Below are positions 7,259 to 64,000 of a stretch of 64,000 nucleotides of DNA, one piece after another. Source of the stretch: Vicinamibacteria bacterium. GTDB lineage: Bacteria; Acidobacteriota; Vicinamibacteria; Marinacidobacterales; Marinacidobacteraceae. Below the pieces are notes generated by a model. The model saw only the letters and a program-made list of their open reading frames with translations, searched no databases and was not told where the DNA came from. The DNA is taken from contig CAXXLQ010000004.1 in assembly GCA_963668695.2 (NCBI GenBank), positions 3,168,001-3,232,000 of the forward strand, written 5' to 3'. Within the stretch, counting starts at the first letter, position 1. The number at the start of each line of letters is the position of its first letter. A program made the translations under genes and the position numbers.

Positions 7259-8996
7259 GCTCAGGCTCCTGTTGAAGGATGCAGTGAATCCCGCCGCCAC
7301 CCAGGTTGACGGCGATCGCGTCGAGGGCGAGCACTTCCCGGCCCGGAAACACCTCGGCCAGGATGGCGAGTGCCCGTTCATCCTTGGCGCGCACGCTCTC
7401 GGGCATTCCCGCCTTCCAGTATTTCTGGGCCAGGACGAGCCCGTTCGTGATCTGGAAGTTGAGATAGCTCGCGGCCGCGATGACCCGGATCTCGCCCTCG
7501 GGATCGATCCGGGATCCGTCTTCGTAGTCGAGCGGCTGAATGTAGTCGAACACCCCGTCGCCTTTCCGCATCGTGTCGAGAAGGGAATCCGGAACCGGCA
7601 TCCGCACAATCCGGAAGGGGTTGCCGTCCTGATCCGTCGCGGCGCGGAGTCTCCGGAAGCTCTCCTCCAGGCGCTCATGGCTGATGGCGGCGATGGGATC
7701 CGTCTGCCGTTCCTCTTCCGTTATCTCGGCGAGGAGGATGGTTTCCGGGTCGGCAAACCGGGCGAACTCGTCCACGTGACCGCCGGTGGTGATGACGGTG
7801 TAGACGTCCCCGGGGAGCCGGCCGCGGAAGGTGAGTTCGTCTTCCGCCATTCCTTCGGCAAGCCAGATGACTTTGGAGACCCCCAGGACCCGGCGGAACT
7901 CCTCTGCCGTGGCTTCGAGGGTCCACCCGGGATTGCGTTGGAGTTCCACCGCCTCCACCGCGATCATCACGCCCCGGCCGTTGAACTCCCGGGAGCCTCC
8001 TTCGCTGATGAGCGATGACTTCTCGACGTCGAGATCGAGCAGTTCCGCGATGTGCCGGTCAACCGCCTCTTCAAGTCTGGAGTTGGCGCTCTCCGGCGAT
8101 TCATAGCCCCACATGTTGAAGCCGAAGTCGGCGATCCGGAGTCCGCCCCGATCGCCGCGCAGGAAAATGGGCCCCATGTCCCGCATCCAGACATCGCCGT
8201 GGGGCACGCTGTGAATGGTCACGTGACCACCGGGGACCCCCTCCCGCCGGAAGCGATCGCGGATGGCGCCGGCTTCGTCGTCGTCCTGGGCCAGCAGTTC
8301 GATCGCCACCCGACCCTCGGCGGCGCGGATGATTTCGATCAGCAGCGGTTCGGTCGGCAACCCGCGCTTGTTCTCGTAGGTCGGCCACGCCATCCAGAGG
8401 GCCCGGTGGGGCTCGAACTCCGCCGGAAAGACGAACGCCTCCCCGAGCGGACCCATCACCGGTTCGCCACTCGGCGCTCCCCCGCACGACCAGAGTCCGA
8501 GCGCCAGCAGAGCGGGCGGGATTCGTAGCAGCCGGTGGTGAAACCCGGGTGAGCGCCGAGGCCGGGGAGGCCCAGTTCTCCCGGTGGGGCCAGTTCTCCC
8601 GGTGGGGGCCCGGCTGACAAGGCGCGTGAGGGAGGAATACCGAGTGTATTTCGACCGAAACGCAACGATGAGCGGCGCGCAGCGACGCGGGTAACGGCCG
8701 GTGGTGGAACCCGGGTGAGCGCCGAGGCCGGGGAGGCCCAGTTCTCCCGGTGGGGCCAGTTCTCCCGGTGGGGGCCCGGCTGACAAGGCGCGTGAGGGAG
8801 GAATACCGAGTGTATTTCGACCGAAACGCAACGATGAGCGGCGCGTAGCGACGCGGTTCAGCCGGGATGGATCGTCGGCCGAACGCCGCGCGGGTTTCAT
8901 TACAGGCTGTTTGGCCGGGATGGATCGCCGGCCGAACGCCGCCTGGGTTTCACCACCGGCTGCTAGGGCGCTGCGACCGCTAGTCGAACACCACAT
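7242..8996 (-). CDS. aguA: Agmatine deiminase family lipoprotein with an in-frame repeat insertion in its signal peptide
   Basis: FPAEFEPH..WMAWP, DVWMRDMGP, SEGG, GGHVDE, GGGIHCILQQ; lipobox LWSC; ATG at 8996 inferred by removing the 8526-8965 element. Confidence 0.85.
   Translation of the reverse strand: MWCSTSGRSALAAGGETQAAFGRRSIPAKQPVMKPARRSADDPSRLNRVATRRSSLRFGRNTLGIPPSRALSAGPPPGELAPPGELGLPGLGAHPGSTTGRYPRRCAPLIVAFRSKYTRYSSLTRLVSRAPTGRTGPTGRTGPPRPRRSPGFHHRLLRIPPALLALGLWSCGGAPSGEPVMGPLGEAFVFPAEFEPHRALWMAWPTYENKRGLPTEPLLIEIIRAAEGRVAIELLAQDDDEAGAIRDRFRREGVPGGHVTIHSVPHGDVWMRDMGPIFLRGDRGGLRIADFGFNMWGYESPESANSRLEEAVDRHIAELLDLDVEKSSLISEGGSREFNGRGVMIAVEAVELQRNPGWTLEATAEEFRRVLGVSKVIWLAEGMAEDELTFRGRLPGDVYTVITTGGHVDEFARFADPETILLAEITEEERQTDPIAAISHERLEESFRRLRAATDQDGNPFRIVRMPVPDSLLDTMRKGDGVFDYIQPLDYEDGSRIDPEGEIRVIAAASYLNFQITNGLVLAQKYWKAGMPESVRAKDERALAILAEVFPGREVLALDAIAVNLGGGGIHCILQQEPEPRAVR
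8526..8965 (+). mobile_element. MITE-like element cluster M1, inside the aguA 5' region
   Basis: TAGCAGCCGGTGGTGAAACC ... GGTTTCACCACCGGCTGCTA terminal inverted repeats; core GCTGACAAGGCGCGTGAGGGAGGAATACC present twice. Confidence 0.85.
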
Positions 8997-14233: not shown

Positions 14234-14328
14234 GGATCACCTCCGCACCGCAGGCGGGTCGGCGGATTATCGCCCCTTCGGGCCCGATTCGCCAGCGCCA
14301 GCCCGCCGCGTTCCGGGTCGCCAGTGGT

Positions 14329-14903
14329 CGGTGGTGGAACCCGGGTGAGCGCCGAGGCCGGTGAGGCGCCCGGCTGACAAGGCGCGTGAGGGAGGAATAC
14401 CCGGTGTATTTCGACCGAAACGCAACGATGAGCGGCGCGAAGCGACGCGGTGAACAGCCGGTGATGGAACCCGCGTGAGCGCCGAGGCCGGCCAGTCCTC
14501 CCGGTGGGGGCGAGGCACCCGGCTGACAAGGCGCGTGAGGGAGGAGCCCCCACCGGGAGAACTGGCCCGGGTGTATTTCGACCGAAACGCAACGATGAGC
14601 GGCGCGCAGCGACGCGGTTCAGCCGGGATGGATCGCCGGCCGAGCCCCCACCGGGAGAACTGGGCCACGTGGGTTTCATCACCGGTTGTTTGGCCGGGAT
14701 GGATCGCCGGCCGAGCCCCCACCGGGAGAACTGGGCCACGTGGGTTTCATCACCGGTTGTTTGGCCGGGATGGATCGCCGGCCGAGCCCCCACCGGGAGA
14801 ACTGGGCCGCGCGGGTTTCATCACAGGCTGTTTGGCCGGGATGGATCGCCGGCCGAGCCCCCACCGGGAGAACTGGGCCGCCTGGGTTCCACCACCGGCT
14901 GCT
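14329..14903 (+). mobile_element. MITE-like element cluster M2 between thrS and infC
   Basis: Two cores plus a 71-bp-period right-arm repeat; ends CCACCACCGGCTGCT; left end degenerate. Confidence 0.8.
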
Positions 14904-20697: not shown

Positions 20698-21588
20698 TAA
20701 CAGCCTGTGGTGAAACCCACGTGAGCGCCGAGACCGGCGAGGCGCCCGGCTGACAAGGCGCGTGAGGGAGGAGCCCCCACCGGGAGAACTGGCCCGGGTG
20801 TATTTCGACCGAAACGCAACGATGAGCGGCGCGCAGCGACGCGGTTCAGTCGGGATGGATCGCCGGTCGAACGCCGTGTGGGTTTTGCCACAGGCTGTTA
20901 ACAGCCTGTGGTGGAACCCGGGTGAGCGCCGAGGCTGGCCAGTTCTCCCGGTGGGGGCGAGGCGCCCGGCTGACAAGGCGCGTGAGGGAGGAATACCTGG
21001 TGTATTTCGACCGAAACGCAACGACGAGCGGCGCGCAGCGACGCGGTTAACAGCCTGTGGTGGAACCCGCGGGAGCGCCGAGGCCGGCGAGGCCCAGTTC
21101 TCCCGGTGGGGCCAGTTCTCCCGGTGGGGGCCCGGCTGACAAGGCGCGTGAGGGAGGAGCCCCCACCGGGAGAACTGGCCCGGGTGTATTGCGACCGAAA
21201 CGCAACGATGAGCGGCGCGCAGCGACGCGGTTCAGCCGGGATGGATCGCCGGCCGAGCCCCCACCGGGAGAACTGGGCCGCGTGGGTTTCATCACCGGTT
21301 GTTTGGCCGGGATGGATCGCCGGCCGAACCCCCACCGGGAGAACTGGGCCGCGCGGGTTTCATTACAGGCTGTTCAGCCGGGATGGATCGCCGGCCGAGC
21401 CCCCACCGGGAGAACTGGGCCGCGCGGGTTTCATCACAGGCTGTTCAGCCGGGATGGATCGCCGGCCGAACCCCCACCGGGAGAACTGGGCCGCGCGGGT
21501 TTCATCACAGGCTGTTTGGCCGGGATGGATCGCCGGCCGAACCACCACCGGGAGAACTGGGCCGCGCGGATTCCACCACCGGCTGTCA
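20698..21588 (+). mobile_element. MITE-like element cluster M4 (two elements joined at TTAA near 20898, expanded right arm)
   Basis: TAACAGCCTGTGG left end, internal CAGGCTGTTAACAGCCTG junction, 71-bp-period repeats; right end overlaps the degP stop codon. Confidence 0.85.
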
Positions 21589-29177: not shown

Positions 29178-29591
29178 TAGCAGCCTGTGGTGGAACCCAC
29201 GTGAGCGCCGAGGTCGGGGAGGCCCAGTTCTCCCGGTGGGGCCAGTCCTCCCGGTGGGGGCCCGGCTGACAAGGCGCGTGAGGGAGGAATACCTGATGTA
29301 TTTCGACCGAAACGCAACGCAGAACGGAGCGAAGCGGAGTGGTGAACAGCCGGTGGTGGAACCCACGTGAGCGCCGAGGTTGGCCAGTCCTCCCGGTGGG
29401 GGCGAGGCCCAGTTCTCCCGGTGGGGCCAGTCCTCCCGGTGGGGGCCCGGCTGACAAGGCGCGTGAGGGAGGAATACCGGGTGTATTCCGACCGAAACGC
29501 AACGATGAGCGGCGCGGTTCAGCCGGGATGCATCGCCGGCCGAGCCCCCACCGGGAGAACTGGGCCGCGTGGGTTTCGCCACAGGCTACTA
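29178..29591 (+). mobile_element. MITE-like element cluster M6 between rodA and rng
   Basis: TAGCAGCCTGTGG ... CCACAGGCTACTA; right end coincides with the rodA stop. Confidence 0.85.
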
Positions 29592-35246: not shown

Positions 35247-37148
35247 ATGATTCTCGAGTACTTTCGCAACCGTCGTTCCGTCGGCTGGTTCATGGGCGCC
35301 GGGCTGCTCGCCCTGGTCATTCTGGCGTTCGTCGCTCTGTATTTCCCGGACTTCATGGGCGACCCCGCGACGGCAGCGATGCGCCGGGGCGTCGCCTGGG
35401 TGGACGGACAACCGATCGCGGCCTCGACCTTTCTCGATCGGTACCGAAACGTCGCCCGCCTGTACCAGGAACAAAGTGGCGGGGAATTCTCCCCCGCCCT
35501 GGCCCGCCAACTCGGCATCCCCGATCAGGTCGTGGGAGAGCTGGTGCGCAGCCGGGTGCTCGTGCTCGAAGCCGAACGGCTCGGGCTCCAGGTCACGAAC
35601 GCCGAAGTGGGAACCAACATCGCGACCTCCCCCACCTTTCAGGAGAACGGGGTCTTCATCGGGCGGGATGCCTACCTCAGCAGGCTGCGGGCAGCCCGCC
35701 TGAACCCCAGAGACTTCGAGGACTCCGTCCGGTCGGACGTGCTGACCGAGAAGCTGCAACGGCTGATTACCGAATCCCCCCACGTGTCCGATCTCGAACT
35801 CCGGGAGGAGTATCGGCGCCGCAACGAGAACGCTTCTCTCGATCTCTGGTTCCTGACCACCGATAGCCGGCGCGGAGAGGTCGAGGTCACGGAGGTGGAC
35901 GCGCGGGCGCGCTTTGAGGCTGCCCCCGAGGCGTTCAAGGTCCCGGAGCAGCGGCGAATCCGATACCTCACGCTCTCCGAGCAGACCGTCGCCGAGGAAG
36001 TCTCCGTAAGGCAGCGCGAAATTCAGCGCTACTACAACCGCAACCTCTTCCAGTACCAGTTGGGGGAACAGGCGGAAGCCAGTCACATCCTGCTCCAGGC
36101 CGAATCAGAGGCCGACGAGGACGCAACCCGCACCCTGGCGGCCCGCCTCGCCGAACGCGCGCGCCTCGGCGAAGACTTCGCGGAACTCGCCCGGACCTAC
36201 TCCGCGGACGAGGGGACGCGGGAGGCGGGTGGAGCGCTCGGAATCTTCGGGCCGGAAGAAATGGTCCCCGAGTTCTCCGAAGCCGTCTTCAGCATGATGC
36301 CCGGCGAGATCAGCGACCCCGTCCGCACCGACTACGGTTACCACGTAGTGCGGCTCGACAACCGCCAGGCCGCCGAAACCCGCGAACTGAGCGAGGTCGA
36401 GGGGGAGATCGAGAGCCGGCTGCGGCAGGAAAAGGCCGCGACTCTTCTTGCCGAACGGGTTCTCGAACTCGGAGAGCGGGTCGGAAACGCCGACTCGCTG
36501 AGCGACCTGGCGGGCGACTACCCGCTGCTGATTCCTCAGGAGTCGGATTTCTTCTCCGCCAGCGACTCCGTCGCCGGATTCGGTTCGCTGGAACTTTCCG
36601 CTCTGGCCTTCGACCTTGAGCTCGGCGCGGTGGGCGGCCCGGTGCGGCTTGCGACCGGTTACGCATTCGTCGAGGTGCTCGAGGAACGACCGCCGCACGT
36701 CCCCGAGTTCGAGGAGATCCGCGAGCAGGTGATGGCGGATCTCGAGGAAGAGCGGGCGGAATCGCTCGCGAGGGAAGCGGGGCAGACCCTTCGTGACCGG
36801 GTCGCCGGCGGGCAGACCGTCGATACCGATCCGACTCCCCTGGAGCGCTGGTTCCGGGGCAGCGCGCTCGGCGCCGCCGGCCCGCTTCCCGGCGCTGAAG
36901 AGACGGTCTTCGGGGCGGAAATCGGAGACGTCGTTGGTCCCCTCGAAGCGGGGCGGGGCTATGCCATCGTCCGGATCAACGGAAAGGAGGGGTTTTCCGA
37001 AACCACCTTCGAGGAACAGCAGGAGCCCTTCCGGGCGCAGATGATGGAAGAGAAAAAGCAGCGCGTTTGGGCGGCTTTCGTCAGTGGCGCCGCCGAGCGC
37101 TACAACATCCGCATCGATCGCCAGGCGCTCAATGCCCTGATCGGGTAA
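35247..37148 (+). CDS. ppiD: PpiD/SurA-like peptidyl-prolyl isomerase chaperone
   Basis: N-terminal TM, SurA-N domain, parvulin ASHILL, FAELARTYS, GGALG, MVPEF, TDYGYH. Confidence 0.85.
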   Translation: MILEYFRNRRSVGWFMGAGLLALVILAFVALYFPDFMGDPATAAMRRGVAWVDGQPIAASTFLDRYRNVARLYQEQSGGEFSPALARQLGIPDQVVGELVRSRVLVLEAERLGLQVTNAEVGTNIATSPTFQENGVFIGRDAYLSRLRAARLNPRDFEDSVRSDVLTEKLQRLITESPHVSDLELREEYRRRNENASLDLWFLTTDSRRGEVEVTEVDARARFEAAPEAFKVPEQRRIRYLTLSEQTVAEEVSVRQREIQRYYNRNLFQYQLGEQAEASHILLQAESEADEDATRTLAARLAERARLGEDFAELARTYSADEGTREAGGALGIFGPEEMVPEFSEAVFSMMPGEISDPVRTDYGYHVVRLDNRQAAETRELSEVEGEIESRLRQEKAATLLAERVLELGERVGNADSLSDLAGDYPLLIPQESDFFSASDSVAGFGSLELSALAFDLELGAVGGPVRLATGYAFVEVLEERPPHVPEFEEIREQVMADLEEERAESLAREAGQTLRDRVAGGQTVDTDPTPLERWFRGSALGAAGPLPGAEETVFGAEIGDVVGPLEAGRGYAIVRINGKEGFSETTFEEQQEPFRAQMMEEKKQRVWAAFVSGAAERYNIRIDRQALNALIG

Positions 37149-37330
37149 CAGCCTGTGGATAAAGTGACGTCAGTGCAGAGACCGGTGAGGCGCCCGGCTG
37201 ACAAGGCGCGCGAGGGAGGAATACCGAGTGTATTTCGACCGAAGCGCAACGATGAGCGACGCATCGCGGCGCGGTTCAGCCGGGATGGATCGCCGGTCGA
37301 ACGCGGCGTGACTTTGTCCACAGGCTGTTA
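37146..37330 (+). mobile_element. MITE-like element M7 (minimal 185-bp form)
   Basis: TAACAGCCTGTGGATAAAGTGACG ... CGTGACTTTGTCCACAGGCTGTTA; left TAA is the ppiD stop. Confidence 0.88.
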
Positions 37331-51062: not shown

Positions 51063-51431
51063 TAACAGCCTGTGGTGAAACCCGCGTGAGCGCCGAGACG
51101 GGCGAGGCGCCCGGCTGACAAGGCGCGTGAGGGAGGAATACCGGGTGTATTTCGACCGAAACGCAACGCAGAAGCACCGCGAAGCGGGGCGGTGAACAGC
51201 CGGTGGTGAAACCGACGTGAGCGCCGAGGCCGGCGAGGCGCCTGGCTGACAAGGCGCGTGAGGGAGGAATACCGGGTGTATTCCGACCGAAACGCAACGA
51301 AGAGCGGCGCGAAAGCGACGCGGTCAGCCGGGATGGATCGCCGGCAGAACGCCGCGTGGGTTTCATCACAGGCTGTCTGGCCGGGATGCATCGCCCGTCG
51401 AACGCCACGTGGGTTTTGCCACCGGCTGTTA
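51063..51431 (+). mobile_element. MITE-like element cluster M9
   Basis: TAACAGCCTGTGG ... CCACCGGCTGTTA; two cores. Confidence 0.85.
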
Positions 51432-58199: not shown

Positions 58200-60902
58200 T
58201 CATTCGCCGCGGACGACGATCTCGGTGAGGCCGGAGCGCAACCCTTCCGCGTGGTGGAGGACGATGCGCACCCGGTCGGCGGCCTCCGGCGCGAACCGGA
58301 TTTGGTGGAGGCTCATCGAGAGCGGAATGTCGGGCGTCTGGGTCGCGTCCGGGAGATCGCGCCAACCGGAATCGCCATTCGCCACCTGCACCTCGATGCG
58401 TACCGGCGCGCCGGTGCCCCGGCTCTCCCAGCTCCATAAGTACAGATCGAGGCCGCTCACCGCTCGGCTCCCGCCAAGCGCGATCTCCACCCAGTCGCGC
58501 TGGCGGGGGGAGCCCAGCGCCGTCCACTGCCGGTCGGAGTAGCGGTTGAAGCCGATGCGCCCGTCGGTGAGTCGGCCGGCGACTCCCTCCGGGTCGAAAG
58601 AAGCCCGTACCGGCCGGGATCGGGCCAGGTTCGGCGTGCGGGTCCCGGGCTCCGGAAGCGGCGCGGGCACCTTCGCCCAGACCTCGATTTCGGAGAGTCC
58701 CGCCACCCGACCCGGCGGGTGGGTGAGCACCACCCGCAGGCGCCGGGTCGTGGTCGGCGCCAGCTCGACCCGGTTGGCGCGACGGCCCGCGGGGAGCGCC
58801 GGCGTCCGCTTTCGGACCCGGGCCGGAACGAAACGCCGGCCCTCCCAGACTTCGATCCGGTAGGAGGACGGAGCGGCGGCGAGCGGGGCCGCGCGCGCAC
58901 CACCGGGAAGCAGGTGCTCCGGGGCGTCCTCGGCTACCAGATCGGGGAGCCCCGCCGTGTCATCGAGAAAGTACAGCCGGACCTCCTCCACGGGGCGCGC
59001 CACGCCGAAGTCCACTTCCAGCCAATCCTCGTCTCTCGCGCCACTCGGCAGCCAGCGGTTCGGGGGGGCCCGGTGATACCAGAACTGGCCGTCCGACGCC
59101 CACCGAGGCGGATAGCGCGGGTGGGAACTGGAGGCGGAGACCGCGGGATACCAGTCGGGGCCGTTGTTCACCGCGAGGTTGCGGGGGCGCGCCGCCTCCG
59201 GGTCGGAGGGCGGCGGCGGCGCCAGGCGGGCGGGAAAACCGGCCAGATCCACCTCCAGCCGACCCGGATCGGCACGGTGCGCCGCCAGTTCCCCGTCGAC
59301 GAACAGCGAGAGGCCGGCGCCCCGCCGGTAGCGATCCCCGTCCCGGTCCCAGACCACGCTGACCGTTCGCCCACGGTAGGCCACTCCGTCGAGGGCGAAC
59401 CAGTCCCACTCCAGCGGCGCCAACGGGTTCACGACGAGCCGGTCGTCGTCCTGCGGTCGGAGGCCGACCAGCCCGGTGATGGCGAGGTCAACGAACGTCG
59501 AATGCAGGTAGTGCTCGCTGTGGAAGAAGCTGTCGTGCCCCGACCAGGAGCCCGTCTCCGGGTGGCTCGCCTCGGCGAGATAGGGGCGGCCCTGTTTGCG
59601 GTGCGAGAGCGCGTACGTCCGGAACAGCGCGAACCAGTCAGCGGCGTTCACCTCTTCCTGCTGGTACTCGTTCAGCAGTCTCGCCATGGCGGTGAGCGTC
59701 TGCGTGCTGGCGTAGGGCCACACATTGCCGCTCCAGACGCAGCACCGGGGAGATTCGTAGTAGAGCGGGTCGTTCTTCTCGGTGGTCCGCAGCCCGGCGC
59801 GGGCGTTGAAGCGTTCCGGGTCCATGAGAAACCCCCAGGCCGGCTCGTAACCGGGACCCGGGAGGCCGAACTGCCAGGGGACGAACCCGATGGCCTCCCG
59901 CCCGTAGGGGCTGCCCGCCCAGGGTCCGCTCTCGTAGGTGAGCGAACCGGCGCGGATCATCGCCCCGGGAGACGAGGCGGCGCGCCGCGCTCCCGCGACC
60001 GCCGCGGCGCCCTCGGGTTCGCTCCCGGAACCGGGCCAGGGGTCGTCCACGCCCGGCTCGTCCTCGGCGAACTGCGGGAAGAAGAAGCGGCGCTCGGGGT
60101 CCCAGAGCTCCTCCTGGATCCGGGCCCTCAGCTCGCCGGCGCGAGCTTCGAAAGCGGCGGCCGCCTCCAGGTCGCCGGCGAGTCGGTAGGTCCTGGCGAT
60201 GGCGGTCGCGTCGGCCCAGAGATAGCTGTTCAACGTGGGCCGATACCCCTCGGCCCCGTCGAACCACTGCTCGGTTTGCCGCGAGTTGATGTTGGTCTCC
60301 ATCCCATCGTGCATCCCATCCCAGCGGAACATCCGGTGCCCGCCGTCCCAGCGCTCCTTCATCCAGCCTTCGTACTGCCGCACCATCAGCGGCAGCATCG
60401 AAACCACCCAGTCCCGGTCGCCCAGCACCCGGTAGGCGGCCCACACGCCGTCGGCGTACCAGTTGGAATAGCTGCGGGGTTCGGCGCCGGGAGTTTCGAG
60501 CCAGTAGCGGGCGAAGTCGTCGAGGATGTCGGGGCGCTTCAGCCAGCGGATCTCGTAGAACTGATGCCCCAGGGGGCAGGAAATCGCCCCGTAGGCCCCG
60601 GACCAGAAGGGGCGGTCCATGAACTCGGTGAAGGTGTAGCCGTGCTCCGGGGAGCCGTAGACCAGGTGCTTCGTGAGCAGCTCCAAGCGGTAGTAGTAGG
60701 TCGCGTCAATCTCCGGGTCGGGCGTCTCGAGGAAGGGGACCGCCTCCCTGAACCAGTCGGTGTCGAGGTTGTCCCGCCAGTCGAAGCGGCCGAGCTGCGC
60801 TTCCGGATCAAGGATCGGCCCCGCGGGAGTCTCCGGGCTGCAAGCGGTGAGCAGCAGCGCGGCCGCCAGCGTGGCGCGGAACAGGCAGCGGGCGGAACTC
60901 AC
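58200..60902 (-). CDS. Glycoside hydrolase (MGH1/GH63-like fold) lipoprotein with C-terminal discoidin/F5-8-like domains
   Basis: Lipobox LTAC, IDATYYYR, TEF, DGME, RPTLNSY, WSGNVWPY, YLHSTFVD; DWLEVDFG and DWVEIALG repeats. Confidence 0.75.
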   Translation of the reverse strand: MSSARCLFRATLAAALLLTACSPETPAGPILDPEAQLGRFDWRDNLDTDWFREAVPFLETPDPEIDATYYYRLELLTKHLVYGSPEHGYTFTEFMDRPFWSGAYGAISCPLGHQFYEIRWLKRPDILDDFARYWLETPGAEPRSYSNWYADGVWAAYRVLGDRDWVVSMLPLMVRQYEGWMKERWDGGHRMFRWDGMHDGMETNINSRQTEQWFDGAEGYRPTLNSYLWADATAIARTYRLAGDLEAAAAFEARAGELRARIQEELWDPERRFFFPQFAEDEPGVDDPWPGSGSEPEGAAAVAGARRAASSPGAMIRAGSLTYESGPWAGSPYGREAIGFVPWQFGLPGPGYEPAWGFLMDPERFNARAGLRTTEKNDPLYYESPRCCVWSGNVWPYASTQTLTAMARLLNEYQQEEVNAADWFALFRTYALSHRKQGRPYLAEASHPETGSWSGHDSFFHSEHYLHSTFVDLAITGLVGLRPQDDDRLVVNPLAPLEWDWFALDGVAYRGRTVSVVWDRDGDRYRRGAGLSLFVDGELAAHRADPGRLEVDLAGFPARLAPPPPSDPEAARPRNLAVNNGPDWYPAVSASSSHPRYPPRWASDGQFWYHRAPPNRWLPSGARDEDWLEVDFGVARPVEEVRLYFLDDTAGLPDLVAEDAPEHLLPGGARAAPLAAAPSSYRIEVWEGRRFVPARVRKRTPALPAGRRANRVELAPTTTRRLRVVLTHPPGRVAGLSEIEVWAKVPAPLPEPGTRTPNLARSRPVRASFDPEGVAGRLTDGRIGFNRYSDRQWTALGSPRQRDWVEIALGGSRAVSGLDLYLWSWESRGTGAPVRIEVQVANGDSGWRDLPDATQTPDIPLSMSLHQIRFAPEAADRVRIVLHHAEGLRSGLTEIVVRGE

Positions 60903-61041
60903 GGCCGCATCGTATGGGAGGACGGCCGGGGGCCGTTGCCGCCCGGCGGCGCATCCGGCAGCCTGGCGGCGGGCCGCCGGCTCCGGACCGCCGGTTCCGG
61001 GCCCGGCCGGGATCAGCCGGCAGTGGTCGCTCAGGGGTCGC

Positions 61042-61749
61042 TAGCAGCCTGTGGTGAAACTCACGTGAGCGCCGAGACGGGCGAGGCCCAGTTCTCCCGG
61101 TGGGGCCAGTTCTCCCGGTGGGGGCCCGGCTGACAAGGCGCGCGAGGGAGGAGCCCCCACCGGGAGAACTGGCCCGAGTGTATTTCGACCGAAACGCAAC
61201 GCAGAGCCCCGCGAAGCGGGGCGGTGAACAGCCGGTGGTGGAACCCACGTGAGCGCCGAGGCTGGCCAGTCTCCCGGCGAGGCCCAGTTCTCCCGGTGGG
61301 GGTCCGACTGACAAGGCGCGTGAGGGAGGAGCCCCCACCGGGAGAACTGGCCCGAGTGTATTTCGACCGAAACGCAACGATGAGCGGCGCGAAAGCGACG
61401 CGGTGAACAGCCGGTGGTGGAACCCGCGTGAGCGCCGAGGCCGGCGAGGCCCAGTTCTCCCGGTGGGGGTCCGGCTGACAAGGCGCGTGAGGGAGGAGCC
61501 CCCACCGGGAGAACTGGCCCGGGTGTATTTCGACCGAAACGCAACGATGAGCGGCGCGCAGCGACGCGGTTCAGCCGGGATGGATCGCCGGCCGAACGCC
61601 GCGCGGGTTTCATCACCGGCTGTTTGGCCGGGATGGATCGCTGGCCGAACGCCGCGTGGGTTTCATCACCGGCTGTTTGGCCGGGATGCATCGCCCGTCG
61701 AGCCCCCACCGGGAGAACTGGGCCGCGTGGGTTTTGCCACAGGCTGCTA
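61042..61749 (+). mobile_element. MITE-like element cluster M10 (three cores)
   Basis: TAGCAGCCTGTGG ... CCACAGGCTGCTA; right end is the galM stop. Confidence 0.85.
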
Positions 61750-63270
61750 GGGCTCCGCCCCCGGGGGATCCACCGAGAAGCGCCAGACCGTGCGGGATCG
61801 ATACTCCTCGCCCGGACGAAGGACGGTGTCGGGGAAACGGGGCTGGTTCGGCGAGTCCGGATAGTGCTGGGTTTCGAGACAGAAACCGGAGCGGTGGCCG
61901 TAGGCGCGCCCGCCCTTGCCGACGACGCTCCCGTCGAGGAAGTTCCCCGAATAGAACTGGATGCCCGGTTCGCTGGTGAAGATGTCGAGCACCCGGCCGC
62001 TCGCCGGATCGCGGACCCGCGCGGCGCGCGCCAAGCCCACGGTTTCGGCGCCGGTGTCGCTGCCGCCGCCGGGCGGCGGGGCGGACTCCCCGCCCAGGAC
62101 GAAGTTGTGGTCGTAGCCGCCGCCCCGGAGCAACTGCGGGTGGGTTTCGCCAATGCGCTCCCCGATCCGCCGCGGGGCGGTGAAGTCGAACGGCGTGCCC
62201 GCCACCGGGACGATCTCGCCCGTCGGAATCAGGGTTTCGTCCACCGGGGTCATGAAATCGGCGTGAAGCAGCAGCTCGTGTTCGAGGACATCGGCGCTCT
62301 CGCCCGCCGACAGGTCGAAGTAGGTATGTTGCGACAGGTTCACCGGGGTGGGCGCGTCGGCGACCGCCCGATAGTCGATCAGTAGTTCATCGTCGTCGGT
62401 GAGCGTATAGGTCACCCGCGCCGACAGGCGCCCCGGGTATCCCTCTTCCCCCGCCGCGCTCTCGTATCCGAGGCAAGCGCTGGCGCGATCCTCGCCAACC
62501 CCGGTTTCGAGTGTCCAGAGCACCTTGTCGAAGCCGCGGATCCCTCCGTGCAGGTGGTTCTCGCCGTTGTTCCGCGCCAGTTCGTAGCGCACGCCATCGA
62601 GCTCGAAGCGGCCGCCGGCGATGCGGTTGGCGTAGCGGCCGACGACCGCGCCGAAGTAGGGGCTGTCCCCCAGATAGCCGTCGAGATCGGCGAAGCCGAG
62701 GGTGATGTCGCCGGGGGACCCGGAGCGGTCAGGCACCCGCAAGGCGCGGATGATCGCCCCGTAGGCGATGATCTCGACTTCGAGTCCCTTCCGGTTCCGG
62801 AGCGTGGCGCCAGCGACTTCGGTCCCGCCGGGAAGGACACCGAAGACGGACTTCGTGACGCGCGCCGGGCTCTCCCCGGCGGGCTGCCCAGTTGCGGCCT
62901 GCCCAGTCGCGGCTTGCCCGGTTGCGGCCTGCCCTGTCGCGGCTTGCCCAGTTGGGGCCTGCCCAGTTGCGGCTTGCCCGGTCGCGGCTTGCCTCGGCGG
63001 CGCGCCGCACCCGGCGCAGAGGGGAAGCGCCATTGCTCCCGCGCCGGCCAGGAGGGTTAACAGCCTGTGGTGAAACCCACGTGAGCGCCGAGACGGGTGA
63101 GGCGCCCGGCTGACAAGGCGCGCGAGGGAGGAATACCGGGTGTATTTCGACCGAAGCGCAACGCAGAGCCCCGCGAAGCGGGGCGGTTCAGCCGGGATGC
63201 ATCGCCCGTCGAACGCCGCGTTGGTTTTGCCACAGGCTGTTGAGACGGCGGTCGGATGCCGGCGCCGCAC
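61747..63270 (-). CDS. galM: Aldose 1-epimerase lipoprotein with an in-frame repeat insertion in its signal peptide
   Basis: YFGAVVGRYANRI, NHLHGG, EEGYPG, NLSQHTYF, GYDHNF, CLETQHYPDSPN; GTG start at 63270 inferred. Confidence 0.85.
   Translation of the reverse strand: MRRRHPTAVSTACGKTNAAFDGRCIPAEPPRFAGLCVALRSKYTRYSSLARLVSRAPHPSRRSRGFHHRLLTLLAGAGAMALPLCAGCGAPPRQAATGQAATGQAPTGQAATGQAATGQAATGQAATGQPAGESPARVTKSVFGVLPGGTEVAGATLRNRKGLEVEIIAYGAIIRALRVPDRSGSPGDITLGFADLDGYLGDSPYFGAVVGRYANRIAGGRFELDGVRYELARNNGENHLHGGIRGFDKVLWTLETGVGEDRASACLGYESAAGEEGYPGRLSARVTYTLTDDDELLIDYRAVADAPTPVNLSQHTYFDLSAGESADVLEHELLLHADFMTPVDETLIPTGEIVPVAGTPFDFTAPRRIGERIGETHPQLLRGGGYDHNFVLGGESAPPPGGGSDTGAETVGLARAARVRDPASGRVLDIFTSEPGIQFYSGNFLDGSVVGKGGRAYGHRSGFCLETQHYPDSPNQPRFPDTVLRPGEEYRSRTVWRFSVDPPGAEP
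62886..62992 (-). repeat. 15-bp coding tandem repeat (QAATG x7)
   Basis: Translation QAATGQAATGQAPTGQAATGQAATGQAATGQAATGQP. Confidence 0.9.
63058..63242 (+). mobile_element. MITE-like element M11 (minimal form), inside the galM 5' region
   Basis: TAACAGCCTGTGGTGAAACC ... GGTTTTGCCACAGGCTGTTG. Confidence 0.85.
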
Positions 63271-63446
63271 GCCGGAGCACCGTCCCGGGCGACGAAGGGG
63301 TCGGCGCAGATTCCTTCGGGAGAGCCCGATCCGGACCGCGGAGCCGCGGACACCGGAGGTCGGTCGAATCGTCATCGGGGCGCCGCGGATAGGGGCCGAT
63401 GGTACCCCGGTCAAATTCCCCCCGGCATACCGGGGCAGCGGCCCCG

Positions 63447-63581
63447 GGTGCGCGTTGCGGTCGAACTCGGAAGGGGCTCGGTGAACCGCATCGAGGTGCT
63501 CGCGGTCTCGCCGAGGCCGACGAGGTCATCCTCTCGGACACCTCGGCCTGGGACACCTGGGACGCAATCCGTCTGCGGTAG
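63447..63581 (+). repeat. Direct repeat 2, second copy (orphan 3' end of the adaptor gene)
   Basis: VELGRGSVNRIEVL / GLAEADEVILSDTSAWDTWDAIRLR*, frameshifted. Confidence 0.9.
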
Positions 63582-63653
63582 GGAATCCCCCGGAGGCCGG
63601 CGCGCCGGGACGGGCGCCGCCTTAGTGAACCGGAGTGAGCGCGAAGTTGCCAC

Positions 63654-64000
63654 TCACGCCGAGGCGAGTTCCTCCGGATCGCCGGGAGTCAGGTGAAGTC
63701 TTCGGGCACCGAGGCCGCGGAAGAGTTGCTCCCGGCAGGTGAGCACGAGGATCTGGACCGTCTGAGCGGCAGAGGTCAGGACATCAAAGAACCGGTCGAG
63801 CCGCTGGTCATCGGAAAACGCCAGCGAATCGTCGAGGATCACCGAAGCAGGCCGGCCCTGTTCGGCGAGAAGTTGCGCAAACGCTAGCCGGACAAGCACC
63901 GTGACCTGTTCGCGGGTGCCCATGCTGAGCTGGTGGTACGGCTCGGCGTGTTCCGGGTCGCGGCGCAACTTCGCGATCGAGAGGTCTTCGTCCACCACAA
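63654..64000 (-). CDS. C-terminal part of an SMC/YhaN-like AAA ATPase (runs off the window)
   Basis: Signature LSMGTREQ, Walker B ILDDSL..SDDQRL, QILVLTC. Confidence 0.8.
   Translation of the reverse strand, partial: VVDEDLSIAKLRRDPEHAEPYHQLSMGTREQVTVLVRLAFAQLLAEQGRPASVILDDSLAFSDDQRLDRFFDVLTSAAQTVQILVLTCREQLFRGLGARRLHLTPGDPEELASA

Follow-up and report, generated by a model that had tools for sequence, protein, structure and literature searches.

The window, the whole 64,000-nucleotide stretch of DNA analysed here, contains close to its end a galM gene on the minus strand with a MITE copy inside its signal peptide. The mature part of galM (61747–63006, minus strand, stop codon included) comprises an Ala/Thr/Gly/Gln repeat linker and an Aldose_epim domain (Pfam PF01263) that scores 303.5 bits against a curated cut-off of 27 (E = 2.2e-90), which makes the product an aldose 1-epimerase. 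It is preceded by a hydrophobic core and lipobox (63007–63057, minus strand; TLLAGAGAMALPLCAG, then Cys at 63007–63009), 16 residues with a mean Kyte–Doolittle value of 1.57. At least 90% of the 11 homologues in the alignment share the lipobox Cys, as would suit a family of lipoproteins; position −3 holds Cys, Ser or Gly and not Leu, Val or Ile. The MITE copy occupies 63060–63240 in plus orientation; it is 181 bp long and matches the whole model (nhmmer, model positions 1–184, E = 9.3e-57). On its far side lie a candidate GTG start (63268–63270) and a basic n-region, RRRHPTAV followed by S (together 63243–63270, minus strand), collinear with the N-termini of proteins P0001–P0003. At the other end of the gene, five MITE pieces in plus orientation abut the stop codon (61042–61749; nhmmer matches at 61042–61225, 61227–61404, 61406–61625, 61623–61677 and 61676–61749). 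The stop codon at 61747–61749 overlaps the last TA of this cluster, which had already been described as capping galM in an earlier, sequence-only reading of the window.

Several in-frame start codons are available. An ATG 35 codons upstream of the GTG (63373–63375, minus strand) is conserved, with the frame open, in this genome (G000) and in G001 and G004, and a TTG is found at 63414. The public gene call P0134 begins at ATG 63375 and continues through the MITE; GTG 63270 has become GCG in G004, a relative that also bears an insert. The 35 codons from ATG 63375 to GTG 63270 have a dN/dS of 0.6–2.4 on 6–11 changes, which says little about coding. A promoter and terminator scan of 62950–63700 yielded 0 sites; a TTGACC-N17-TATCCG arrangement noticed by eye upstream of ATG 63375 falls below the scan criteria, and we claim no promoter there. 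Downstream of the MITE the sole in-frame start is ATG 63033 (63031–63033, minus strand), with GGGAG 2 nt upstream. Translation starting downstream of the MITE, the case that the sequence-only reading had named as its own undoing, appears unlikely, because a protein begun at this one candidate would have just 8 residues ahead of the conserved lipobox Cys.

The TA target-site duplication has its gene-distal copy on the plus strand at 63058–63059 and a degenerate second copy at 63241–63242 that reads TG. The 181-bp MITE together with a TA dinucleotide is read by galM as 61 codons (183 bp added), which contain 0 stops and 0 ATG, GTG or TTG codons on the minus strand and end in ...GFHHRLL. The sequence-only reading had described a 183-bp element: the 183 bp and 61 open codons added to the gene stand, whereas the element itself measures 181 bp. 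It was right about the GFHHRL end of the insert and about its antisense arrangement, galM being on the minus strand and the copy in plus orientation, and wrong about the joint left after removal, given as S-T; the predicted joint is V-(L)-T, and relatives have V-F-T. The insert peptide is Arg-rich and non-hydrophobic (net charge +10, 12 K/R versus 2 D/E; most hydrophobic 12-residue window only 0.82), and its last 12 residues, with a net charge of +4, stand directly before the hydrophobic core. The n-region is positive and followed by a hydrophobic core, as a lipoprotein signal requires (net charge +13 or +23, according to which start is used). By the PROSITE rule for lipoprotein signals, the Cys lies about 15–35 residues from the start; in galM it is residue 27 without the insert and residue 88 (GTG) or 123 (ATG) with it, outside this expectation. 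In the G002 orthologue the nearest start lies at least 35 residues before the hydrophobic core, so that long Arg-rich n-regions are native to the galM family. Inspection of the galM N-terminus by eye revealed no twin-arginine (Tat) motif of the S/T-R-R-x-F-L-K kind. The copy forms a strong hairpin, with −120 kcal/mol (z = −11.7) on the plus strand and −101 kcal/mol (z = −7.8) in the mRNA sense.

The galM copy is one of many. In this 4.1-Mb genome nhmmer finds 912 matches that together cover 146 kb, among them 433 of full length, counts that are about 6% too high through assembly redundancy. The window alone holds 37 occurrences of the 19-nt terminal repeat, where chance would give 0.01. The family has the properties of a bacterial MITE. 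It is small, present in many copies and without its own transposase; aligned copies carry 26-nt terminal inverted repeats (ends ACAGCCTGTGGTG.AACCC.CGTGAG and complement), and the entire element forms a hairpin. TA is found on both sides of 182 of 420 copies, in the context Y-TA-R, and the empty orthologous site has a single TA in two of the four loci compared at the DNA level. Mobility is evident from filled and empty sites, which occur at all eight signal peptide loci described below across the genus, as well as within the public run X5. Copies are 181 bp long plus a ladder of 18-bp modules, the canonical lengths being multiples of three, and many lie 0–35 nt upstream of real start codons. 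No Rfam family matched 60000–64000 at the gathering score. The frame used by galM is stop-free in 395 of the 420 copies irrespective of location, and the openness at galM alone is therefore weak evidence; averaged over six frames, 34% of frame-copies (863 of 2520) are stop-free. Of the 87 copies in the 181-bp class, 83 have the galM frame open, compared with 66–75 in simulations that ignored the copies' shared ancestry. The 61-residue peptide matched 173 of 1.84 billion representative proteins, mostly ORFs of 180–270 residues across repeat clusters, a search that is uninformative apart from P0134, as the 50% identity clustering conceals real insert-bearing proteins.

Comparison with orthologues, which the sequence-only reading had proposed, and the family analysis both support the interpretation given there, an in-frame MITE that separates the basic n-region of the galM signal peptide from its hydrophobic region. 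Uninterrupted forms of this signal peptide, identical in layout and without the 61 residues, are found in P0001–P0003 (92–96% identity) and in the G001 orthologue. In run X5, one contig bridges the upstream galM junction with 0 differences and another skips 63051–63246, an empty allele present at similar depth to the filled one. The galM copy looks young, given its 96–98% identity to copies elsewhere (96.7% to the closest paralogue within its own genome, 98% to copies from other species) and the empty allele in a near-identical strain. In G004 a different family member occupies the same TA of galM, likewise in frame. The G000 and G004 copies share 85.6% identity and are two modules apart, and each is 97–98% identical to MITE copies elsewhere. 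A single ancestral insertion common to both genomes is disfavoured by this identity, the two-module difference and the closer copies elsewhere; gene conversion may also have played a part.

This galM is present in just 4 of 16 genus genomes; the gene in the window has no frameshift or stop, and pairwise dN/dS is 0.14–0.38. A hand partition of the pairwise counts assigns 0 nonsynonymous and 12 synonymous changes to the G000 branch, and 17 and 10, respectively, to the G004 branch; together with the lost GTG, the latter counts could reflect relaxed constraint. All differences in the core and lipobox among G000, G001 and G004 are synonymous except one Cys/Ser in G001. On these sequence comparisons, the low dN/dS, the G000 branch and the near-absence of amino acid changes in core and lipobox, galM does not appear to be decaying. 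The signal of purifying selection may largely be older than the insertion, because the MITE copy looks young, and the MITE codons themselves are nearly neutral between G000 and G004 (dN/dS 0.72). In three metatranscriptome runs 0 contigs crossed either galM MITE junction, in contig data with possible DNA carry-over; run X15 contains one 152-nt contig within the galM body, and run X18 contains contigs of a ~94% relative over 62548–62840 and 63261–63444. These contigs weigh neither way on galM expression.

The same arrangement recurs elsewhere. With signal peptides assigned by eye, eight loci in this genome have a MITE inside the signal peptide in the galM layout: galM, PAD_porph/aguA, a PSD-type cytochrome, DUF1573, Amidohydro_3, ankyrin, Amidohydro_1 and DUF5916. 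At all eight the signal peptide is element-free in related genomes, confirming insertion into coding sequence. The ankyrin and cytochrome loci contain the element in the opposite orientation. The aguA sibling is as the sequence-only reading had it: a nested MITE pair at 8526–8965, read through on the minus strand, separates a short N-terminal part from a lipoprotein-type hydrophobic core, and the site has no element in G001 and 8 further genus genomes. A scan blind to frame openness added three further candidates, all complex. Including these, 10 of the 11 recognised signal-peptide-adjacent loci are stop-free through the whole MITE block, compared with the six-frame average of 34% (binomial P ~2e-4, calculated by hand). 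The insert adds from 61 to ~146 residues before the hydrophobic core at 8 or more genes. Insertions at 5 of the 8 loci are common to more than one species (2–3 species), with the frame still open and the cores intact despite changes in 18-bp modules and second insertions, and DUF5916 in G007 has an independent insertion 3 codons away. Surviving in-gene copies comprise the 8 verified signal peptide loci versus 1 mid-gene candidate.

The explanation that we consider probable is that the MITE sits within a working galM signal peptide, is read through from an upstream start (GTG 63270 or ATG 63375), does no more than lengthen the n-region, and is cleaved off together with the signal peptide. A TA-duplicating, non-autonomous MITE has entered a T-TA-A site at the junction of n-region and core, in the one orientation and phase that almost every member of the family keeps free of stops. 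Since element and duplication together add 183 bp, a multiple of three, in a stop-free phase, the galM frame stays open. We infer that galM is expressed from one of the two upstream starts and that translation continues through the 61 extra codons. The last 12 insert residues would restore a basic stretch before the core, giving a precursor whose cytoplasmic n-region is 71 or 106 residues long and whose core and lipobox are undamaged. Once this precursor had been exported by Sec and lipidated, signal peptidase II would cut off the entire extension; mature GalM would thus be unchanged and the insertion nearly neutral. Two observations count against parts of this scenario: the −101 kcal/mol mRNA hairpin could impede ribosomes or draw RNases, and an n-region of 71–106 residues is far beyond those of usual lipoprotein signals.

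Alternatively, the insertion could have severed the signal peptide, leaving the MITE in a 5' UTR, translation starting at ATG 63033, GalM cytoplasmic or non-functional and the open frame incidental. Many bacteria have their aldose epimerases in the cytoplasm, and the family-wide openness of this frame, with its canonical lengths in multiples of three, the many copies shortly upstream of real starts, the GGGAG just before ATG 63033, the hairpin and the loss of the GTG in G004 would all fit. We nevertheless regard this as unlikely, given that ATG 63033 leaves so few residues before the conserved Cys, with the GGGAG just 2 nt away, and that core and lipobox changes are purely synonymous in the two insert-bearing genomes. 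Openness across the loci is also far above the 34% expected were the frame irrelevant, and at other loci insertions have been kept in 2–3 species with intact cores.

It is also conceivable, and in our judgement quite unlikely, that the MITE family is specialised for signal peptides, either by targeting the junction of n-region and core or by being retained there through tuning of the symbiont's secretome export. Such a reading draws on module steps that are without exception multiples of three, on stop-free Arg-rich frames in both orientations, and on repeated insertions at this junction, including independent ones in the same gene in different species. The secretome genes that carry the MITE include one for an ankyrin-repeat protein.

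A recent insertion that is mildly or strongly deleterious, impairing galM expression or export in this strain and neither purged nor decayed yet, would be consistent with the high identity of the copy to its paralogue and to copies in other species, with the empty allele coexisting at similar depth in run X5, with a gene so sparsely distributed in the genus that it may be dispensable, and with the excess of nonsynonymous changes on the G004 branch in the hand partition. That the same TA is occupied in G004 and still open, that analogous insertions shared between species at 5 of 8 loci demonstrate that the layout can outlast speciation, and that galM is free of frameshifts and stops make it improbable. 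A functional insert, kept because its mRNA hairpin or long basic n-region adjusts how secreted proteins are translated or exported, is very improbable: recurrence at 8–11 secreted-protein genes, the independent DUF5916 insertion in G007, the different family members at one galM site, the excess of open frames over simulation in the 181-bp class and the 98% identical copies across species (gene dS ~0.08–0.10) speak for it, but the MITE codons are nearly neutral, most orthologues have no insert, the simulation takes no account of shared ancestry, and random insertion at TA sites followed by selective filtering accounts for the pattern without function.

In-frame fusions of such elements are already known from Rickettsia; what is new here is the recurrent colonisation of signal peptides. 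Rickettsia palindromic elements (RPEs) are short palindromic mobile repeats found in frame in conserved protein genes whose products apparently still function (PMC10969869, PMC2229807). RPEs and this MITE are alike in that the conserved protein gene remains intact after insertion, as is found here. Compared by description rather than by sequence, this MITE belongs to a different lineage, assigned in this analysis to the Gemmatimonadota, and has 26-nt terminal repeats, TA duplication and the 18-bp module ladder; RPE insertions lie in the mature protein, whereas the in-gene survivors of this MITE cluster in the cleaved signal peptide. Correia elements of Neisseria and ERIC/YPAL, according to PMC2229807, are small hairpin repeats with TA at both ends and high copy number, are co-transcribed with neighbouring genes, and in some cases have open frames fused to genes. 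The same source reports that YPAL supplies part of a signal peptide predicted for one putative exported protein, a hydrophobic MITE peptide being proposed to create the signal peptide in a new ORF. Here, in contrast, a basic, non-hydrophobic peptide has repeatedly entered conserved signal peptides that known enzyme families already possessed, as checked against empty orthologues. The literature searched contained no account of MITEs inserting recurrently into signal peptides already in place.

Insertions have accumulated in galM and at least seven other exported proteins of a sponge-associated bacterium, apparently without breaking the proteins. They amount to an experiment, replicated by nature, that shows how far bacterial signal peptides can be extended, some insertions having outlasted speciation. 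They also suggest that mobile DNA within genes finds a safe harbour in the cleaved signal peptide, which adds to what is known from the RPEs of Rickettsia. Software that calls genes or predicts signal peptides can be expected to mis-set starts or overlook such exported proteins, and the secretomes of such sponge symbionts to be underestimated as a result. The natural filled and empty alleles offer a handle on whether the insertions change export or translation. Signal sequences displaced from the extreme N-terminus are also familiar from laboratory lipoproteins: a study by Hayashi et al. in 1985 (J Biol Chem 260:5753) deals with such signals. Internalised or N-terminally extended constructs were reportedly still modified and processed. 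They were engineered as fusions, with E. coli and B. subtilis as hosts, whereas galM has a natural MITE extension in an uncultured symbiont.

With regard to mobilisation, the search of this genome turned up no element that combines a transposase with the terminal repeats of the MITE, and the only 0.5–5 kb interval between facing MITE ends with a long ORF encodes an amidase and not a transposase. IS630/Tc1-mariner elements, as candidate mobilisers, resemble the MITE in TA target duplication and Y-TA-R context. DDE_3 transposases occur in this genome at three loci (4 matches), and the inverted repeats of the resident DDE_3 elements share with the MITE ends only the 7-nt core TGTGGTG.

The MITE copy in galM, the minus-strand aldose 1-epimerase gene, occupies positions 63060–63240 (181 bp), with TA at 63058–59 as its left flank and TG at 63241–42 as its right, and the plus strand reads GGGT-TA-ACAGCCTGTGGTGAAACCC ... 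GGTTTTGCCACAGGCTGT-TG-AGACGG. The sequence-only reading, which had described an open 61-codon insertion between the basic n-region and the hydrophobic region of a lipoprotein signal peptide, was accurate apart from two details: the element itself measures 181 bp and reaches 183 bp only with one TA, and the right-hand dinucleotide is degenerate. A minus-strand open reading frame (61747..63414) traverses the whole element, and a codon-by-codon reading of the 61 codons from 63240 to 63058 gave zero stops and zero ATG, GTG or TTG codons. In-frame starts lie 5' of the element at TTG 63414, ATG 63375 and GTG 63270, and ATG 63033 is the sole in-frame start 3' of it. The peptide encoded by the insert is strongly basic (12 K/R versus 2 D/E), lacks any hydrophobic stretch and places a basic run immediately before the core; downstream of the element, 16 mainly hydrophobic residues lead to Cys-Ala-Gly-Cys, then to a repeat-rich linker and the aldose 1-epimerase domain (PF01263, E = 2.2e-90). 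The copy's hairpin has a folding energy of -120 kcal/mol on the plus strand and -101 kcal/mol in the mRNA sense, and 0 of 200 shuffled sequences were equally stable.

By comparison with relatives, which have an uninterrupted protein, the galM copy evidently sits within coding sequence. The three closest database homologues (P0001–P0003; 92–96% identity, 441–451 residues) share the basic N-terminal residues of the window protein and join these directly to the same hydrophobic core and lipobox, the window protein differing by exactly 61 residues. The gene was found in 4 of 16 genomes of the genus. In the same-genus genome G001 just 2 bases separate the two flanks of the element, the site being TTC versus the TTA predicted from the source genome, G000. 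G002 has a more distant orthologue, likewise uninterrupted, whose nearest start codon is at least 35 residues before the core; this protein thus natively has long Arg-rich n-regions. In the public sequencing run X5, one contig crosses the upstream junction with zero differences and another, of similar depth, links 63050 to 63247 via 13 other letters; filled and empty galM alleles therefore coexist in closely related strains.

The galM start is probably one of two candidates, GTG 63270 or ATG 63375, each upstream of the element. GTG 63270 agrees with the annotated starts of P0001–P0003, and G004 has GCG at that codon. G000, G001 and G004 all retain ATG 63375 and the open frame after it, and P0134, a public gene call identical across the insert, begins at this ATG; in the 35 codons between the two candidates no protein-level constraint was seen, with just 6–11 changes to judge by. 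The approximately 170 nt upstream of the GTG (63271–63440) are 93–95% conserved among the same three genomes, and beyond them the G000 sequence is unrelated, synteny breaking at that point. Pairwise dN/dS of the mature protein is 0.14–0.38. A hand partition of changes over three taxa assigns 0 nonsynonymous and 12 synonymous changes to the G000 branch and 17 and 10, respectively, to the G004 branch, and differences in the core and lipobox are synonymous except for one Cys/Ser change in G001. The element codons are near-neutral (dN/dS 0.72). Because the G000 copy looks young, the dN/dS figures show constraint on galM until recently and do not establish it for the present.

G004 also carries an element in galM, at the same TA and in the same orientation as in G000, with an open frame of 73 codons and two additional 18-bp modules. 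The two copies are 85.6% identical to each other, in flanking galM sequence with dS of about 0.08, whereas the G004 copy shares 97–98% identity with copies at other sites in G004, G001 and G008, and the G000 copy 98% with others in G001, G004 and G008. A single old insertion shared by G000 and G004 and later overwritten by gene conversion is the less favoured reading. Because each copy resembles copies elsewhere more closely than its counterpart, we consider it more likely that the same T-TA-A, present in both lineages and absent in the empty relatives, was hit twice independently.

Most of the evidential weight is carried by a wider pattern across multiple loci. All full-length copies in G000 were scanned for open reading frames passing through them into coding-like sequence, followed by Pfam searches. 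At eight loci the element separates a short N-terminal part from a hydrophobic core: galM (window 63058), the PAD_porph gene aguA (window 8526–8965, two nested elements), a PSD-type cytochrome (C4:230095), a DUF1573 protein (C4:510896), Amidohydro_3 (C4:643853), an ankyrin-repeat protein (C4:1811186), Amidohydro_1 (C4:3015499–3015902, two tandem elements) and a DUF5916 protein (C4:1778850). An element-free version of the same signal peptide exists in related genomes for 8 of 8 loci. Several insertions are common to multiple species with their frames still open: those in the cytochrome and the DUF1573 gene are common to G000 and G001, that in the ankyrin gene to G000, G004 and G008 (flanks 221, 257 and 200 bases apart), and aguA has one element in G008, two tandem elements in G004 and two nested ones in G000. 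The genomes are related, and shared insertions are therefore not independent events. At the DUF5916 locus, the distant G007 carries an insertion of its own, offset by three codons, and closer relatives are empty. Two loci use the opposite orientation (sense frame 1), and the effect is therefore independent of any one peptide.

Several further loci deserve mention. The ankyrin-repeat protein with a signal peptide (C4:1811186–1813349), with its insert in three species, belongs to a eukaryote-like type often discussed for sponge symbionts. At C4:955123–955611, 2867275–2867805 and 3367349–3367585 a hydrophobic core directly follows an element cluster, and the frames stay open over more than 160 codons; for one of these three genes the native start is seemingly cut off and an element-internal ATG (in the ...VMKP... 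frame) could serve. At C4:2542248–2542484 an element adjoins the N-terminus of a MiaA-like P-loop protein, no start codon intervening, and the start of this gene may now be inside the element. Just one putative mid-gene in-frame insertion was found, in a TPR-like frame (C4:1339440–1339624) that is coding-like on both sides.

Because the first scan could detect open cases only, a scan blind to openness was run, selecting coding-like sequence past a block (an element copy or cluster of copies), a hydrophobic stretch within 14 residues and no start codon between. It produced 48 rows, 19 of them without an intervening start, of which 13 are stop-free through the block and 6 contain at least one stop. 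Nine of the 19 were judged signal peptides by eye, and 8 of these are stop-free through the whole block; in the ninth (C4:955123) the sole stop is 162 codons upstream, beyond the proximal element, and is followed by an in-frame ATG inside an element. Of the other five rows with stops, one is a P-loop protein, one is a 129-nt fragment, and three have no recognisable signal. The scan left out galM, whose hydropathy is under the threshold, and the ankyrin locus, which has a start-type codon at the junction; with both added, 10 of 11 loci are stop-free, compared to 863 of 2520 frame-copies (34%) as the six-frame average. The binomial probability is approximately 2e-4, calculated by hand and with the by-eye signal-peptide classes as its weak point. 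This excess argues that the elements at signal-peptide loci are translated, and thus favours read-through over a downstream start.

In-frame fusion of MITEs with genes is established, foremost for the Rickettsia RPEs, and has been reported for ERIC, BOX, QMITE1 and Anabaena MITEs (PMC10969869); the word "signal" is absent from that review. Delihas (PMC2229807) mentioned MITE fusions that give rise to predicted transmembrane or signal-peptide motifs; in one Yersinia ORF, a hydrophobic MITE peptide makes up part of the signal peptide. A literature search, mainly of abstracts, found no report of recurrent MITE insertion into pre-existing conserved signal peptides. TA is rare in this G+C-rich genome, and insertions therefore probably concentrate at stop codons and short spacers, nearly all intragenic ones being lost. 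Survival would need a length that is a multiple of three, a stop-free reading frame and a site tolerant of extra residues. The n-region of a signal peptide is probably such a site, being cytoplasmic, requiring no more than positive charge and being cleaved off; for GalM, export, lipidation and cleavage would follow the general Sec/signal-peptidase II pathway.

The element is a TA-duplicating MITE. The window contains its 19-nt end 37 times versus 0.01 expected, and a profile built on 84 copies yielded 912 matches in the 4.1-Mb, 67% G+C genome, 433 of them spanning the whole model, totalling 146 kb; these counts are about 6% too high because contigs C1, C3 and part of the C4 ends duplicate other C4 regions. 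The redundancy of the assembly (contamination 9% by the tool's figure) is seen in exact C4 matches for 56 of 73 C1 probes and 11 of 16 C3 probes, and in parts of C4's first 141 kb that recur near its end. Copies have terminal inverted repeats of about 26 nt, and TA is present on both sides in 182 of 420, preceded by a pyrimidine and followed by a purine. Inserted lengths form a ladder of 18-bp steps (183, 201, 219, 237, 255 and 273 bp), are divisible by three in 269 of 420 copies, and reflect 0–5 repeats of a short palindromic module of 6 codons, approximately GGCCAGTTCTCCCGGTGGGG plus its complement. Orthologous insertions vary in module number, as in the 200, 221 and 257 bases of the ankyrin locus, which suggests gain or loss of modules at the site itself, or their exchange by conversion. 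The galM-type frame is open in 83 of 87 copies of the 181-bp class, compared to 66 (sd 3.9) or 75 (sd 3.2) under simulated mutation of the consensus, which is only a hint of selection for an open frame since the simulation treats copies as having no shared ancestry. No transposase was found between facing element ends and no Rfam family matched across 60000–64000; DDE_3 (IS630-type) genes are present in the genome, and their ends have just a 7-nt core in common with the repeat. The element is present in 15 of 15 other genus genomes searched, and sponge metagenomes are among the public runs containing the stretch. Single copies share 97–98% identity with copies at unrelated positions in other species of the genus, against a synonymous divergence of about 0.08–0.10 in flanking genes, which suggests that a conserved source was recently active, that the element is strongly constrained, or that co-resident symbionts exchange copies. 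Clusters arise by nesting, with a full element within another at model position ~129/130 and tail pieces (model 130–185) recurring about 71 bp apart; those in the window lie at 8526–8965, 14327–14832, 20698–21586, 29178–29590, 51063–51431 and 61042–61749. This arrangement points to a preferred target inside the element itself.

Forty-four blocks have coding-like flanks on one and the same strand; 12 of them are in phase versus approximately 15 expected for unrelated neighbouring genes. In 27 of these 44 blocks the upstream frame ends within the opening bases of the block, and most such copies therefore lie between genes, in a stop-codon TA. For many copies the fit is exact: TA plus the element's first A restores TAA for the upstream gene (e.g., window 37146–37330), and the next gene begins 0–35 nt past the element.
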